From a virus (lineage: Duplodnaviria > Heunggongvirae > Uroviricota > Caudoviricetes): a stretch of DNA of 5,671 nt. The stretch lies in the IMG/VR virus record IMGVR_UViG_2663763286_000017; one strand, given 5' to 3'. Under the pieces are notes generated by a model. That model ran no database searches, was not told the origin of the DNA, and was given only the letters and a program-made list of their open reading frames with translations. The first letter of the stretch is position 1. Every line of letters starts with the position of its first letter. Both the position numbers and the translations under genes were made by a program. Shown here piece after piece: positions 1-5,671 of this stretch.

Positions 1-272
1 ACTATGCAGATGATGGCTGGGCTGAGGCGGACAATAACATCGCTGAAAATGCGTTGCGGATGGTCAGTCTGGGCCGCAAAAACTACCTGTTCTTCGGTTC
101 GGATCATGGAGGAGAGCGGGGAGCGCTGCTGTACAGCCTGATCGGGACGTGCAAACTGAACGGAGTGGAGCCAGAAAGCTACCTCCGCTATGTCCTTGAC
201 GTCATAGCCGACTGGCCGATAAACCGGGTCGGCGAACTGCTCCCCTGGCGCGTAGCACTGCCGACTGAATAA
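1..272 (+). CDS. IS66-family transposase (TnpC-type), C-terminal fragment; 5' end outside window
   Basis: Frame beginning at nt 3 is open from the window edge to TGA 270-272. Translation ...YADDGWAEADNNIAENALRMVSLGRKNYLFFGSDHGGERGALLYSLIGTCKLNGVEPESYLRYVLDVIADWPINRVGELLPWRVALPTE matches the conserved C-terminus of IS66-family transposases (GRKNxLF..GGERxAxxYSLIxTCKLNxVxPxxYLxxVL...NRxxELLPW), from memory. Track ORF 54..272 is the same frame starting at an internal TTG. Confidence 0.85.
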   Translation, partial: YADDGWAEADNNIAENALRMVSLGRKNYLFFGSDHGGERGALLYSLIGTCKLNGVEPESYLRYVLDVIADWPINRVGELLPWRVALPTE

Positions 273-2421: not shown

Positions 2422-3309
2422 CTATACGATTCGACGTTCAGCTGCGGCGCGATGCCGTACAACCTGCGTGATAATGTATGCTGGATTCCCCAATACACCA
2501 TTAGTTTCTTTGACTCTTTTTGTCACATTCACTACAAAAAGATCATCTTTACTGAATGACGCTTCGTTTAAATTTACTCGCTCAAGAAAACCAGCATCCG
2601 CCATCTTAACCTTTACATCCTCGCCGTCTGGCAATACCATCCTCCAATCTGTATCGGAAGTAAAGCTCAGCTTAGAAAACTTGACGTTTAAGGTCAATGA
2701 GTCTTCATGTGTATGTTGTACAACCGTATTATTCACTTTTTTAAAAGAAACAGATTGCTCTTGCGAAATAGAGACAATCTCCTCCCCACTTGAGTTTTTT
2801 ACTCTAAACGACGAGTTTTTTTCAGTTTGCAGAGGAGTGTGTACCAATTTACTCATTTCATTGCGGATCGTAGAGTTTGTAACGAGCTTTTGTACGTCAT
2901 TTGAACACTCAAATCGCTCATTATCAACAACAAAAGTCGCTCGGTTATTGGCTTCATCTATAACAACCTCATGTGGCTTTCGCCCTCGCAACCATTCTAC
3001 AACCCCAACCAAACTCCCAGCACTTGCGCCGGTGGCAACAGAAAGCCCCAAGAGTTGCAAAGTAGATAAACTACCCAAAACAGAGACAAGAACAGTAAAA
3101 GATCCTTCCTGAATTGCCTTAATACTAACCCTAGTTGTTGCAGTCTCACCGTGGATAATTTTCTCTGCATTATCAATCAAATTACTTAATGAAGACAGAG
3201 CATCACCAAGCATTTTAGCATCGATCTCATTATTCGCATATGCATCCCCAGCATATGCAATCTCAAGCTCTGTTACCTGTTGGTCGGTCATGAAGTTCAA
3301 CTCCACCAT
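2422..3309 (-). CDS. Gene A of unknown operon: 289-295 aa protein with a central small-residue-rich hydrophobic segment; function unknown
   Basis: Long minus-strand ORF. The first ATG (3309) has no Shine-Dalgarno; the second in-frame ATG (3291-3289) has GGTGGAG 9 nt upstream and is the likelier start (MTDQQVTELEIAYAG...). Stop TAG 2424-2422. Sampled GC is ~35% (2701-2800). No Walker A, HExxH or other catalytic motif seen by eye. Confidence 0.75.
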   Translation of the reverse strand: MVELNFMTDQQVTELEIAYAGDAYANNEIDAKMLGDALSSLSNLIDNAEKIIHGETATTRVSIKAIQEGSFTVLVSVLGSLSTLQLLGLSVATGASAGSLVGVVEWLRGRKPHEVVIDEANNRATFVVDNERFECSNDVQKLVTNSTIRNEMSKLVHTPLQTEKNSSFRVKNSSGEEIVSISQEQSVSFKKVNNTVVQHTHEDSLTLNVKFSKLSFTSDTDWRMVLPDGEDVKVKMADAGFLERVNLNEASFSKDDLFVVNVTKRVKETNGVLGNPAYIITQVVRHRAAAERRIV

Positions 3310-3384
3310 AAAAAATATGCAAAATAATTAACAGTATTTTCACTTTATGGCGGGTGCGTTGAGGATGCCTGACACATCAGAGGT

Positions 3385-3403
3385 GGCGGGGGTTTACCCC
3401 GCC
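3385..3403 (-). other. GC-rich stem-loop in the hok 3' UTR (7-bp stem GGCGGGG/CCCCGCC, 5-nt loop)
   Basis: Perfect inverted repeat 3385-3391 / 3397-3403, starting 8 nt downstream of the hok stop. No U-tract follows on either strand, so it is not a canonical intrinsic terminator. Its position parallels the 3' hairpin of plasmid R1 hok mRNA, from memory. Confidence 0.5.
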
Positions 3404-3410
3404 TGGTCTC

Positions 3411-3566
3411 TTACTCCTCAGGTTCGTAAGCTGTGAAGACAGCGACCTCCGTCTGGCCGGTTCGGATTCGTACCTCGCAGAGGTCTTTCCTCGTTACCAG
3501 TGCCGTCACTATGACGGTTAAACAGATGACGATCAGGGCGATTAACATCGCCTTTTGCTGCTTCAT
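3411..3566 (-). CDS. hok: Hok/Gef-family type I toxin (51 aa; closest to HokD/RelF in my memory), with an in-frame mok-like upstream extension to 3623
   Basis: ATG 3566-3564 preceded by AAGGAGAAG; protein MKQQKAMLIALIVICLTVIVTALVTRKDLCEVRIRTGQTEVAVFTAYEPEE has the Hok architecture (TM helix, then RKDLCE..R...EVA.F.AYE). Stop TAA 3413-3411. Track ORF 3411..3623 (70 aa) is the same frame from an upstream ATG, i.e. a mok-like leader ORF that here is in frame with hok. Confidence 0.88.
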   Translation of the reverse strand: MKQQKAMLIALIVICLTVIVTALVTRKDLCEVRIRTGQTEVAVFTAYEPEE

Positions 3567-3579
3567 AGCCTGCTTCTCC

Positions 3580-3608
3580 TTGCCTTTCGGCGCGTAAGAG
3601 GCTAACCT
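3580..3608 (+). promoter_or_regulatory. Putative sok-type antisense promoter (TTGCCT-17-TAACCT)
   Basis: Plus-strand TTGCCT (3580-3585), 17-nt spacer, TAACCT (3603-3608). Position and sequence parallel the R1 sok promoter as I recall it (TTGCGC-17-TATCCT), inside the start of the mok-like ORF on the opposite strand. Confidence 0.4.
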
Positions 3609-3614
3609 ACATGT

Positions 3615-3690
3615 GCAAGTCATAGATATGGCCTCAGATTAATGTTAAGCGTCTTGCCGGACGCGTAATGTTAACTGGGGCTTTTCTCTA
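3615..3690 (+). ncRNA. sok: Putative Sok-like antisense RNA (type I antitoxin), roughly 65-75 nt
   Basis: Plus-strand transcript from about 3615 would be complementary to the mok-like start and Shine-Dalgarno region of the hok mRNA. It contains a long imperfect hairpin (3641-3653 / 3660-3672, one A-G mismatch, loop TTGCCG) followed by GGGGCTTTTCTCT (3677-3689). Ends are estimated, not measured. Confidence 0.4.
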
Positions 3691-3737
3691 TCTGCCGTTG
3701 GTGTTCATGCCCGAGGCAGATAGCCTCAAGCACCCGC
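3688..3737 (-). promoter_or_regulatory. hok mRNA 5' leader elements: tac-like stem-loop and 5' fbi element pairing with the mRNA 3' end (3350-3364)
   Basis: Minus-strand RNA 5' end reads GCGGGUGCUUGAGGCUAUCUGCCUCGGGCAUGAACACCAACGGCAGAUAG, with a 9-bp hairpin CUAUCUGCC...GGCAGAUAG (3688-3696 / 3716-3724). The 5'-most 14 nt (3724-3737) are complementary to 3350-3364 (GCGGGUGC/UUGAGG against CCUCAA-C-GCACCCGC, one bulged nt), as in the fold-back-inhibition pairing of R1 hok mRNA. Confidence 0.55.
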
Positions 3738-3741
3738 AGCA

Positions 3742-3769
3742 ATTCTACTTAACTCTCGCTTTACCGCAA
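3742..3769 (-). promoter_or_regulatory. Putative hok promoter (TTGCGG-16-TAGAAT)
   Basis: Minus strand: TTGCGG (revcomp of 3764-3769), 16-nt spacer, TAGAAT (revcomp of 3742-3747). It places the transcription start at about 3735-3737, right at the 5' fbi element. Confidence 0.45.
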
Positions 3770-3781
3770 ACCGTTTTTACC

Positions 3782-3803
3782 CGATATGGGAATTCCCATA
3801 TCG
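3782..3803. repeat. Perfect 22-bp palindrome CGATATGGGAATTCCCATATCG, about 13 bp upstream of the hok -35
   Basis: Read directly: 3782-3792 is the exact reverse complement of 3793-3803, centred on GAATTC. No U-tract follows on either strand, so an operator for a dimeric DNA-binding protein is the more likely reading. Confidence 0.5.
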
Positions 3804-3811
3804 TAATGAAT

Positions 3812-3916
3812 TCAGTTCCCTAGTCGATCCATCAAAAACACAACCAGGCAGTAAACGCCCACAACAGCAATAACAGCCAGCGCACCTTCCATTGCCAGTG
3901 AAATATCATCCGACAT
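3812..3916 (-). CDS. Tiny hydrophobic ORF, 34 aa (single predicted TM helix)
   Basis: Not in the track. ATG 3916-3914 with AAAGGAGGG 4-5 nt upstream; translation MSDDISLAMEGALAVIAVVGVYCLVVFLMDRLGN; stop TGA 3814-3812. Confidence 0.4.
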   Translation of the reverse strand: MSDDISLAMEGALAVIAVVGVYCLVVFLMDRLGN

Positions 3917-3951
3917 ATTCCCTCCTTTGGTGTTAATCCCGGCGAACGTTT

Positions 3952-4035
3952 TTACCCCCACCGACAAATAACATATACTAAAAAAGCGATAGCCATAGCA
4001 ACGCCTGTAATTGCAAATGCTTCAGGCCAGTTCAT
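3952..4035 (-). CDS. Tiny hydrophobic ORF, 27 aa (single predicted TM helix), translationally coupled to the DUF551 gene
   Basis: Not in the track. ATG 4035-4033 overlaps the TGA (4034-4032) of the upstream gene as ATGA; consensus AGGAGGT lies 6 nt upstream; translation MNWPEAFAITGVAMAIAFLVYVICRWG; stop TAA 3954-3952. Confidence 0.45.
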   Translation of the reverse strand: MNWPEAFAITGVAMAIAFLVYVICRWG

Positions 4036-5083: not shown

Positions 5084-5290
5084 TCACTTTTCCGACACAA
5101 TACGACCGGATGAATCGACAATCTGCCGAACAATATCCCGGTGCTTGTTCAGCTCCCGCAGCGCGGCGCAGACTCGCTCCCACTTCTGAACATCACTTTT
5201 CGCCCTGCGCAGCGCCAGGTTTGCCCTGCGAAGGGACGGAAAAATCAGCTCATCTGCTTGCGTTTCGGTAAACGATGGCAACGGCTGCAC
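5084..5290 (-). pseudogene. 3' portion (~68 codons) of a phage gene interrupted by the IS629-like insertion
   Basis: The minus-strand frame is open from 5290 to TGA 5086-5084 and continues without a start codon into the IS terminal sequence. Track ORF 5084..5383 takes its first 31 codons from inside the IS end, so the native 5' part must lie beyond the IS. Confidence 0.5.
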
Positions 5291-5671
5291 TGAACCGCCC
5301 CGGAAATCCTGGAGACTAAACTCCCTGAGAAAGAGGTAAACAGGATGACTAAAAATACACGTTTTTCCCCCGAGGTCCGTCAACGGGCAGTTCGTATGGT
5401 TCTGGAAAGTCAGGGCGAATATGACTCACAATGGGCGGCAATTTGTTCCATTGCCCCAAAGATTGGCTGTACACCAGAGACTCTGCGTGTGTGGGTTCGT
5501 CAGCATGAGCGGGATACCGGGAGTGGTGATGGTGGACTCACCACCGCTGAACGTCAGCGTCTGAAAGAGCTGGAACGTGAAAATCGTGAACTGCGCCGCA
5601 GTAACGATATCCTTCGCCAGGCTTCCGCTTATTTTGCGAAGGCGGAGTTCGACCGCCTCTGGAAAAAATGA
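5291..5671 (+). mobile_element. Left end of an IS629-like (IS3 family) insertion sequence; body continues right of window
   Basis: The terminal sequence TGAACCGCCCCGG... begins at 5291 (IS3-family ends start with TG) and orfA starts 54 nt inside. The orfA protein matches IS629/IS1203-type OrfA, from memory. Confidence 0.8.
5345..5671 (+). CDS. IS3-family transposase OrfA (IS629-like), 108 aa, HTH DNA-binding subunit
   Basis: ATG 5345 with GAGG upstream; protein [108 protein letters not shown]; stop TGA 5669-5671. The A-run GGAAAAAATGA at the 3' end is where an IS3-type -1 frameshift into orfB would be expected. Confidence 0.9.

Follow-up and report, generated by a model that had tools for sequence, protein, structure and literature searches.

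Evidence for a structurally complete hok/sok-type type I toxin-antitoxin locus of the HokD lineage in a lambdoid prophage of Shiga-toxigenic E. coli

Results

Identification and setting of the locus

The region 3349-3769 of the window, which is the whole 5,671-nt stretch of DNA analysed, is very probably an intact canonical hok/mok/sok type I toxin-antitoxin (TA) cassette. It would represent the HokD (RelF) lineage in full length, and lies in the nin region of a lambdoid prophage carried by Shiga-toxigenic E. coli. The sequence elements are all present and intact, a closed fold is predicted for the mRNA, the helix formed between its tac and fbi elements covaries, and a tested homologue exists. 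These results support the structural completeness of the locus as a hok/sok-type TA module. The original prediction, made from the sequence, was that a complete set of hok/sok-type elements is present and that the locus may be functional. Every element of this set is found where it was predicted, with evolutionary support in addition, and the suggestion of function is a sensible one, since prophage Sp5 has an experimentally working type I TA system, hokW-sokW, that is 93.8% identical to this locus (PMC8621323). The locus is already known, its RefSeq annotation being hokD, and is an ordinary hok/sok cassette.

The prophage around the cassette is IS-riddled, and is disrupted at both ends of the window by IS66-family and IS3-family insertions. 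relBE is absent from the 5,671-nt window according to the ORF list and a Pfam search, which bears out the earlier statement that no relBE lies upstream of hok in the window. A full leader, matched by Rfam RF01794, is present instead.

The ORF directly downstream of the hok locus (2422-3309, (-) strand, 295 aa) matches PDC-S42, a candidate defence family of PADLOC, with an E value of 1.2e-46. Together, hok/sok and this PDC-S42-like gene might form a prophage-borne anti-phage defence islet, in which hok/sok would trigger abortive infection instead of serving as an addiction module. The presence of a Doc toxin in the same slot in other strains is consistent with such an islet, as is the reduction of T4 plating by R1 hok/sok, in the form in which this report is quoted in PMC8621323. 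However, the neighbour slot varies across strains, whereas hok itself is constant, which argues for independent cargo genes and not for a functional unit. In addition, PDC-S42 is only a candidate system, and a genome-wide survey is reported to show no enrichment of hok near defence systems (bioRxiv 10.1101/2025.08.07.668861). A defence islet is improbable on this evidence.

The Hok toxin and the mok leader

The hok toxin CDS (3411-3566, (-) strand) encodes a HokD-type protein of 51 aa. Its assignment to the Hok family, as originally proposed for the ORF 3566-3411, is confirmed by a match to Pfam PF01848 (HOK_GEF) with 81.6 bits (cut-off 22; E=2.9e-23). The ORF also matches PHROG 251 'MokW-like host killing' (E=2.8e-33), and its PGAP name is hokD (WP_000813254.1). 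The NCBIfam Hok models match it as well, but with scores under their strict cut-offs. It has the character of a Hok/Gef protein, a small hydrophobic ORF of ~50 aa with the conserved LCE motif. The CDS is identical in nucleotide sequence to that of K-12 hokD, and the 51-aa protein is the same as K-12 HokD. The hok Shine-Dalgarno (SD) sequence AGGAG (3576-3580, (-) strand) lies within a stretch that is invariant in all aligned loci, including K-12 hokD. HokD served as a toxic control in another study (bioRxiv 10.1101/2025.08.07.668861). By homology, Hok of this locus would be toxic and would be neutralised by Sok.

The mok-like leader ORF (3411-3623, (-) strand) encodes 70 aa, and is in frame with hok, with which it has a common stop codon. 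Its start had been assigned to 3623, and the SD sequence GAGG (3635-3632, (-) strand) is located 8 nt upstream of this ATG. A homologue of this ORF is annotated as 'MokW-like host killing' in phage VT2-Sakai. GAGG is found at the position of the mok SD in eight of the nine loci compared, the exception being K-12 hokE. The mok reading passes through the hok SD and the hok start codon. For R1, the dependence of hok translation on mok translation has been demonstrated (PMC9841398).

The mok-to-hok start offset is 57 nt at this locus, which places the two ORFs in frame, whereas the canonical R1-type allele has an offset of 58 nt and a 70-aa Mok that is out of frame with hok. The R1-type reference sequence was checked against PLSDB and gives 100% matches in many IncF plasmids. 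Thus, the original contrast with R1 is correct as far as the R1-type allele is concerned, but does not distinguish the locus, since mokC, mokA and mokW are also in frame. In the K-12 annotation, mokC and hokC share a stop codon, and likewise mokA and hokA; MokW is annotated as a 70-aa in-frame ORF, as at this locus. An in-frame mok was therefore rejected as a novel trait. The mok frame flips by 1-nt indels between near-identical loci. Because the frame of mok relative to hok varies across the family, it is not a defining feature.

Promoter and predicted fold of the mok-hok mRNA

The promoter-like site of the hok/mok mRNA (3742-3769, (-) strand) consists of TTGCGG (3769-3764), a 16-nt spacer and TAGAAT (3747-3742), as originally predicted. 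It matches the consensus at 8 of 12 positions, and both hexamers are identical in Sp5 hokW. A -10 hexamer of the TAnnAT type is found at the equivalent place in hokB, hokC, a P1-like locus and PPompW. A generic sigma-70 consensus scan of either strand placed neither this promoter nor the Sok promoter described below above the threshold. The credibility of both promoters rests on homology to hokW/sokW and on the conserved positions of the hexamers, rather than on consensus strength.

The predicted full-length mok-hok mRNA is ~389 nt long (3349-3737, (-) strand). Its 5' end is placed by the distance to the -10 hexamer and by position 1 of the Rfam model at 3735, and its 3' end by the end of the fbi helix. 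Rfam RF01794 matches the hok strand at 3735-3561(-). The score of this match is 108.4 bits (E=9.7e-25), where the gathering score is 59, and the model is covered over its full length, positions 1-157. Although this model is named 'sok', it has the sense of the hok mRNA and ends at the hok AUG. Because it matches the hok-mRNA strand, the match is evidence for the leader and not directly for an antisense transcript, and was rejected as proof of the antisense RNA.

The full-length mRNA folds with a minimum free energy (MFE) of -163.8 kcal/mol (z = -7.4), and none of 100 shuffled sequences folds as well. Folding had been suggested as a check of the original prediction; the 389-nt fold closes the 5' end to the 3' end, and the 5'-3' helix is contained in both the MFE and the centroid structures. 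The full-length R1-type positive control adopts the same closed fold. In the MFE structure, the ucb or anti-SD box AGCCCC (3677-3682, (-) strand) is the partner of the mok SD. GCC.C (3681-3677) pairs with G.GGC (3635-3631) through G57-C107, C58-G106, C59-G105 and C61-G103, while C60 stands unpaired opposite A104, so that a C.A mismatch is left. The equivalent in the R1 geometry is C74 opposite A106 (PMC9841398). The mok SD is thus predicted to be sequestered by the upstream anti-SD in the closed form.

After loss of the last 20-45 nt of the mRNA, the MFE structure contains a 5' local hairpin, GUGCUUGAGGC-UAUCU-GCCUCGGGCAU (3707-3733, (-) strand), the counterpart of the R1 metastable hairpin. 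In R1, tac transiently forms a hairpin with the sequence just downstream (PMC9841398). The tac-like hairpin originally noticed at the mRNA 5' end is real as a hairpin at 3733-3707, but it corresponds to the R1 metastable 5' hairpin and not to the tac/ucb stem. In the 3'-truncated mRNA, analysed by MFE and base-pair probabilities, the 5' end moves into this local hairpin, the tac/ucb stem is not reproduced, and the predicted accessibility of the mok SD is almost unchanged. Because the R1-type positive control fails likewise in truncated folding, this method cannot decide the opening step.

The GC-rich 3' hairpin GGCGGGG-UAAAC-CCCCGCC (3385-3403, (-) strand) folds with -16.8 kcal/mol (z = -3.4), and is conserved in the alignment with variation in both loop and stem. 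It presumably protects the 3' end of the processed mRNA, as judged from the role of its R1 counterpart (PMC9841398).

The tac/fbi helix

The tac element GCGGGUGCUUGAGG, which is the mRNA 5' end (3724-3737, (-) strand), and the fold-back inhibition (fbi) element CCUCAA[C]GCACCCGC (3350-3364, (-) strand) are complementary over 14 bp, interrupted by a single bulged C (3358). Fold and duplex prediction agree with this pairing. The duplex energy is -26.4 kcal/mol, which is matched by none of 300 shuffled tails. The tac sequence is the same as the 5' end in the hokW primer YO-351, and hokW and K-12 hokD have the fbi sequence without any change. In 17 of 19 diverse loci, the fbi helix is located 45-50 nt past the hok stop codon. 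The 14-nt, one-bulge pairing of the mRNA 5' end with 3350-3364 that had been proposed is thus confirmed in sequence, fold and conservation.

Covariation was analysed by tabulating pair types for each helix position from duplex predictions; the bulge shifts one column in hokB. Related loci were searched for with a 3-member Hok alignment. Compensatory (double-sided) changes are found at helix positions 6, 9, 12 and 14. Such changes and the conserved position of the helix are seen in Photorhabdus, Pantoea, Kluyvera and hokB. This compensatory evolution indicates that the RNA structure is under purifying selection.

The Sok antisense RNA

The Sok promoter-like site (3580-3608, (+) strand) consists of TTGCCT (3580-3585), a 17-nt spacer and TAACCT (3603-3608), and matches the consensus at 7 of 12 positions. 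The original prediction that this site would drive an antisense RNA across the mok start agrees with the present analysis, in which the site is present and the predicted RNA spans the mok start. The hexamers are the same as those of the sokW promoter, including the TAACCT -10. Mutation of the sokW -10 from TAACCT to GAGCCG (primers YO-421/422) silences sokW and abolishes antitoxin activity, and sokW RNA is detected on northern blots (PMC8621323). Of 23 loci, 19 have a TTGnnn-17/18-TAnnnT pattern at the corresponding position.

The predicted Sok RNA (3615-3691, (+) strand) is ~71-77 nt long, rather than the ~65 nt estimated earlier. It would begin with a single-stranded 5' tail of 15 nt, followed by a hairpin of 52 nt (3630-3681), and would end in a CUUUUCUCU tail; its folding energy lies between -28.6 and -29.7 kcal/mol (z between -4.4 and -5.0). 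Its start at 3615 and its end at ~3685-3691 are placed by analogy with K-12 sokC, the annotated start of which is 8 nt into mokC. The predicted RNA covers the mok start codon and the mok SD with full complementarity, and would therefore be a cis-encoded Sok that overlaps the mok initiation region. Its architecture (free 5' tail, hairpin and U-tract) and the promoter position are conserved in other genera.

The 24-nt segment that contains the Sok 5' tail and the mok start (3609-3632) is 64% identical to hokW, against 100% for the adjacent 106-nt leader. Because of this low identity, the two Sok RNAs may not cross-neutralise.

As a separate observation on paralogues, the Sok recognition segment is hypervariable, and differs in every within-genome pair of leader-bearing paralogues examined.

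Comparison with known systems

The closest tested system is hokW-sokW (mokW) of the Stx2 prophage Sp5 / VT2-Sakai / 933W of E. coli O157:H7, the nucleotide identity given above extending over 98% of the locus. It is toxic, is rescued by Sok and produces a detectable Sok RNA (Takada et al. 2021, PMC8621323). The two loci are 100% identical in the 106-nt 5'UTR, the hok SD region and fbi, agree in the promoter hexamers of hok and Sok, have a mok of 70 aa in frame with hok, and are both located in lambdoid prophages. They differ in the Hok C-terminus (...VFTAYEPEE at the present locus and ...VFVDYESEK in HokW), in the flanking genes and the prophage, and in the 3' hairpin, which is 3 nt shorter at the present locus. 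None of the regulatory elements carries a disabling change relative to the functional hokW-sokW.

Plasmid R1 hok/sok (parB) is the paradigm of type I TA systems. Its parts and their order agree with those of the present locus, and run from the promoter through tac, ucb, the Sok-complement hairpin, the mok SD/ATG, the Sok promoter inside mok, the hok SD, hok and the 3' hairpin to fbi. Its closed fold is predicted to contain the tac/fbi helix seen here, the C.A mismatch between the mok SD and the anti-SD recurs, and RF01794 matches both loci. The Sok promoter is at the homologous position, with TTGCGC-17-TATCCT in R1 and TTGCCT-17-TAACCT here. In contrast, Hok of R1 is only ~39% identical, mok of the R1-type allele is out of frame, as described above, and the Sok hairpin of the present locus is longer by ~18-20 nt. 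R1 hok/sok is a plasmid addiction module, whereas the present locus is prophage-borne.

K-12 hokC (gef)/mokC/sokC resembles the present locus in an 82% identical Hok, a homologous 5' leader and a mokC in frame with hokC. Differences are the IS186 that follows hokC, the lack of fbi pairing, a shorter Sok hairpin and another Sok -10.

K-12 hokD (relF) of the cryptic prophage Qin shares with the present locus the identical hok CDS, the hok SD, the fbi box, a close 3'UTR and the same type of prophage neighbourhood. The identity ends 14 nt upstream of the ATG, from where relE sequence follows. K-12 has lost the entire region upstream of window position 3580, with Phok, tac, ucb and mok as well as the Sok gene and its promoter; relBE stands in its place, and the K-12 hokD locus gives no RF01794 match. 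The contrast that had been drawn with the K-12 relic is thus correct, and the class of K-12-type relBE-hokD relics is ruled out for the present locus, which has a full leader and no relBE. The locus is the undisrupted form of the K-12 hokD lineage.

Precedents for decay are provided by K-12: hokD stands in a fusion behind relBE, IS150 interrupts hokA, and IS186 follows hokC and hokE. The locus could accordingly be a hok relic of the same kind as these four K-12 loci, with an essential regulatory part broken, and IS elements are also present in the window. However, these elements are confined to positions < ~310 and > ~5290, far from the hok locus. The RF01794 match extends from end to end, while the K-12 relics are without an RF01794 match or fbi pairing. 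Moreover, fbi, the 3' hairpin, both SDs, mok and both promoters align undisrupted to hokW and to loci in other genera; the alignment to other hok loci had been suggested as a check, and reveals no disruption of promoters or leader. A decayed relic is extremely improbable, and this interpretation was rejected in view of the full-length RF01794 match and the undisrupted alignment to hokW.

Discussion

The following mechanism, including the transcripts themselves, the 3' processing, the translational coupling and toxicity in the native context, is inferred from R1 hok/sok and Sp5 hokW-sokW. A weak constitutive promoter would produce a stable mRNA of ~389 nt, which would be closed by pairing of its first 14 nt (tac) with the 3'-terminal fbi box. 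While the mRNA is closed, the upstream AGCCCC box would hold the mok SD GAGG, and neither mok nor hok would be translated. Slow 3' trimming to the GC hairpin would remove fbi, upon which the 5' end would refold, and the mok ribosome-binding site and the Sok target would be exposed. Ribosomes translating mok would traverse the hok SD and switch on hok. The short-lived Sok (~71-77 nt), transcribed from the opposite strand, would bind by its free 5' tail across the mok start, so that mok translation is blocked and the duplex is marked for RNase III. When Sok synthesis stops, the 51-aa membrane toxin would be made.

Candidate physiological roles are prophage retention, a lysis aid on induction as reported for hokW, and phage exclusion. 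A hokW-like role in phage release may be moot here, because IS elements disrupt the host prophage at either end of the window. Chromosomal hokA, hokB and hokC with intact elements cause no post-segregational killing (PSK), as quoted in bioRxiv 10.1101/2025.08.07.668861, so that structural integrity is no guarantee of classical PSK activity. The locus might likewise be a structurally intact but physiologically silent prophage passenger, transcribed under full repression or too weakly expressed, with no role in PSK, defence or lysis. The same source cites neither PSK nor rifampicin-induced killing by the three intact chromosomal loci. The sub-consensus character of both the hok and Sok promoters, the degradation of the surrounding prophage by IS66-family and IS3-family insertions, and the redundancy suggested by a median of 2 and up to 10 hok/sok loci per E. 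coli genome also point in this direction. However, the regulatory elements are all kept, without a disabling change relative to functional hokW-sokW, and the compensatory evolution of the tac/fbi helix points to purifying selection on the RNA structure. Furthermore, identical promoters are present in hokW-sokW, for which both expression and a phenotype have been demonstrated (PMC8621323). A silent passenger is therefore rather unlikely.

The intact cassette has little importance as a discovery, being a textbook hok/sok cassette that is annotated as hokD. Of the complete E. coli genomes, about 74% contain the locus over at least 80% of its length, and the copy in E. coli 13E0780 (NZ_CP020106) is 100% identical. 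An intact HokD-type locus is thus no surprise, being the common state in E. coli. Its value is that it shows K-12 hokD/relF as it was before relBE displaced the regulatory half.

It is possible, and proposed here tentatively, that the segment 3609-3632, which comprises the Sok 5' tail and its target, is a fast-evolving specificity cassette. If its divergence insulates paralogues, each Sok would neutralise its own hok only, and up to 10 co-resident prophage and plasmid loci could act independently. The toggling of mok between the in-frame and out-of-frame states would then be a neutral by-product. The present locus and hokW-sokW form a natural pair of paralogues that differ almost only in the Sok recognition segment, and are suited to tests of cross-talk avoidance between co-resident type I TA modules.

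Elements of the cassette

Every element of the hok/sok cassette that the original prediction listed is present where it was placed, as judged by direct reading of the minus strand at window 3200-3900. On this strand, the promoter-like site of the mok-hok mRNA, Phok (3769-3742), consists of TTGCGG (3769-3764), a 16-nt spacer and TAGAAT (3747-3742), and the predicted mRNA 5' end, tac (3737-3724), reads GCGGGUGCUUGAGG. The mok Shine-Dalgarno (SD) sequence, GAGG (3635-3632), is followed by the ATG (3623) of a 70-aa mok-like ORF, which shares its stop codon with the 51-aa Hok ORF (3566-3411); the hok SD, AGGAG (3580-3576), lies before the hok ATG. A GC-rich hairpin (3403-3385; GGCGGGG-UAAAC-CCCCGCC) is followed by the fold-back inhibition (fbi) box (3364-3350), CCUCAA[C]GCACCCGC; apart from one additional C at 3358, this box is reverse-complementary to the initial 14 nt of the mRNA. 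The plus strand carries the promoter-like site of the antisense Sok RNA, Psok (3580-3608), consisting of TTGCCT (3580-3585), a 17-nt spacer and TAACCT (3603-3608). The Hok ORF matches HOK_GEF in Pfam (E=2.9e-23) and PHROG 251, 'MokW-like host killing' (E=2.8e-33), and PGAP names the toxin gene hokD (WP_000813254.1).

Leader, closed fold and promoters

On the minus strand, 3735-3561 scores 108.4 bits against the Rfam model RF01794 ('sok'; gathering score, 59), a match that covers model positions 1-157 of 157. This match validates the leader, and not the antisense transcript, because the model runs in the sense of the hok mRNA, its final columns being the hok AUG. Since a model named 'sok antitoxin' marks the hok leader, Sok could be mis-stranded by annotation pipelines.

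The predicted 389-nt mRNA folds at -163.8 kcal/mol (z = -7.4), with 0 of 100 shuffles as stable, and the long-range pairing that had been proposed is borne out as a 14-bp 5'-3' helix in both the MFE and centroid structures. An R1-type hok/sok sequence, which matches many IncF plasmids at 100% identity, served as a positive control and is predicted to close in the same way. In the fold of the window mRNA, an upstream AGCCCC box pairs with the mok SD, with C facing the A of GAGG, which is the anti-SD geometry of R1 (PMC9841398). When the mRNA is truncated at its 3' end, the predicted structure has a local 5' hairpin at 3733-3707, and predicted accessibility of the mok SD does not increase; the same modelling likewise fails to open the R1 control. 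The 5' hairpin that had been called tac-like corresponds best to the metastable hairpin of R1.

The antisense RNA, predicted to start at 3615, opens with a free 5' tail of 15 nt, after which come a hairpin of 52 nt and a U-tract (z = -4.4 to -5.0). The credibility of Phok and Psok rests on homology, because they match the consensus at 8 and 7 of 12 positions, respectively, and a generic sigma-70 scan reports neither.

Comparison with hokW-sokW and K-12 hokD

The hokW-sokW system of prophage Sp5 (VT2-Sakai) is 93.8% identical to the locus across 98% of the query. It shares with hokW an identical (100%) 106-nt 5'UTR, hok SD region and fbi box, the Phok hexamers are unchanged, and the Psok region differs from that of sokW only at one position in the spacer. 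The published hokW primers YO-349 and YO-350 and the YO-351 homology arm match the window exactly. HokW is toxic and is neutralised by sokW expressed from its own promoter, sokW RNA is detected by northern blot, and hokW-sokW promotes lysis and phage release following induction (Takada et al., PMC8621323). Mutation of the sokW -10 hexamer abolishes protection (PMC8621323), and this hexamer, TAACCT, is the same in Psok of the window. The identities with hokW, together with the end-to-end match to RF01794, essentially exclude that the locus is a decayed relic.

The K-12 hokD CDS is nucleotide-identical to the hok CDS of the window, but this identity ends 14 nt upstream of the ATG (window 3580), beyond which relE is found, and a search of the K-12 hokD locus with RF01794 gives no match. 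Therefore, the contrast that had been drawn with the K-12 hokD relic is correct. The window holds the HokD lineage in its undisrupted form.

Reading frame of mok

It had been claimed that mok, unlike that of R1, is in frame with hok. This holds against the canonical R1-type allele, in which a 70-aa Mok is out of frame with a 58-nt offset, but not in general. K-12 mokC/hokC and mokA/hokA are annotated with common stop codons, the annotated MokW is this very ORF, 70 aa long and in frame, and mok is likewise in frame in an IncFII plasmid with a Hok identical to that of R1, so that an in-frame mok is rejected as a novel feature. In close relatives, a 1-nt indel, AAAGG[T]CAAGG, toggles the mok frame relative to hok, as exemplified by phage Rac, a P1-like plasmid prophage and hokB. 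This indel, located at 3579-3585 and at the homologous positions of three hok loci (L007, L008 and L009), switches the frame among loci that are ~88-95% identical, falls inside the Psok -35 hexamer and turns TTGCCT into the more consensus-like TTGACC. Such flipping fits the report that the Mok peptide itself does not matter, whereas translating mok as far as the hok SD does (PMC9841398).

Conservation and proposed mechanism

Relatives were represented by 54 loci fetched from genomes of other species. RF01794 matches 20 divergent ones among them, all at full length. Of these, 19 were analysed, and in 17 a box situated 45-50 nt past the hok stop pairs with the initial 12-14 nt of the leader. Among 17 distinct versions of this helix, compensatory double-sided changes occur at positions 6 and 9 (both U-A to C-G), 12 (A-U to G-C) and 14 (G-C to A-U), and K-12 hokB behaves likewise. 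Of 23 loci, 19 have the Psok pattern TTGnnn-17/18-TAnnnT and the layout of tail, hairpin and U-tract at the homologous position. Hok loci near-identical (96-100%) to that of the window occur in assemblies that carry the labels Veillonella parvula MAG, Acinetobacter idrijaensis and Xanthomonas pisi (L022, L032 and L038), and a locus in an 'Actinobacillus phage' record (PP818812.1) is 95% identical; these labels most likely reflect contamination, mis-binning or mislabelled hosts, not true host range.

No part of the cassette is missing or disrupted, folding predicts the closed form, and the helix covaries. The presence of a complete hok/sok-type locus is confirmed, and the evidence supports how it was interpreted, apart from minor corrections. 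The canonical hok/sok cycle explains the locus best: the full-length mRNA would first adopt the closed form, its 3' end would then be trimmed, the trimmed mRNA would refold, hok translation would be coupled to mok translation, and Sok would block mok translation.

Genomic setting

The window belongs to a lambdoid prophage of Shiga-toxigenic E. coli (STEC) and lies in its nin region. The gene neighbourhood comprises DUF977, DUF551, hok, a variable cargo slot, DUF1367 and a YbcO nuclease. In related genomes, a ydaT/ydaU/ydaV replication module is located farther upstream. O157:H7 strain F3113 is the best overall match (98.7%). Homology to other prophages is limited to ~310 to ~5290, and both ends are insertion sequences, with an IS66-family transposase C-terminus (54-272, plus strand) in 1-310 and an IS3-family (IS1203/IS629-like) OrfA (5345-5671, plus strand) in 5290-5671, indicating that the prophage is interrupted on either side of the gene block. 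Possibly, the cassette is intact yet physiologically silent: the host prophage is IS-riddled, and intact chromosomal hokA, hokB and hokC loci gave no post-segregational killing (PSK), as quoted in bioRxiv 10.1101/2025.08.07.668861.

The hok/sok cassette is already known and very common. Of 5426 complete E. coli genomes, 4020 have a locus covering at least 80% of its 422 nt; the number of related places per genome has a median of 2 and reaches 10, and several cattle and veal STEC strains carry identical copies of the locus.

The variable slot that separates hok from the DUF1367 gene is filled by three minus-strand ORFs, one at 2422-3309 and two small ones at 2174-2413 and 1785-2177; in strain 13E0780, a Doc (death-on-curing) toxin gene and a small ORF occupy it instead. 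The ORF at 2422-3309 (295 aa), next to hok on its downstream side, hits PDC-S42, a candidate defence family in PADLOC (E=1.2e-46), and PHROG 3243 (function unknown), with no match in Pfam. One may speculate that hok/sok and the PDC-S42-like gene form a defence islet, but a survey (bioRxiv 10.1101/2025.08.07.668861) reports that hok is not enriched close to defence systems. Just upstream of Phok, a small minus-strand ORF (3812-3967) with a hydrophobic C-terminal half (…AVIAVVGVYCLVVFLMDRLGN) has no match in Pfam, PADLOC or PHROGs; at the corresponding place, PGAP has a 34-aa hypothetical protein (WP_001278450.1). The small ORF contains a terminator-like hairpin (3861-3845).

Variable segment at the Sok tail and mok start

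The 24-nt segment at 3609-3632, which covers the Sok 5' tail and the mok start, is 64% identical to Sp5 hokW, whereas its flanks, including the adjacent 106-nt leader, are 100% identical. In a comparison of six loci (L014, L026, L037, L017, L019 and L027), this segment also differs among leader-bearing paralogues residing together in E. coli ECMA0423 and in Shigella flexneri SFBU1023. This pattern suggests that the segment may be a specificity determinant against Sok cross-talk, as such hypervariability would be expected if paralogues are insulated from one another's antitoxins.
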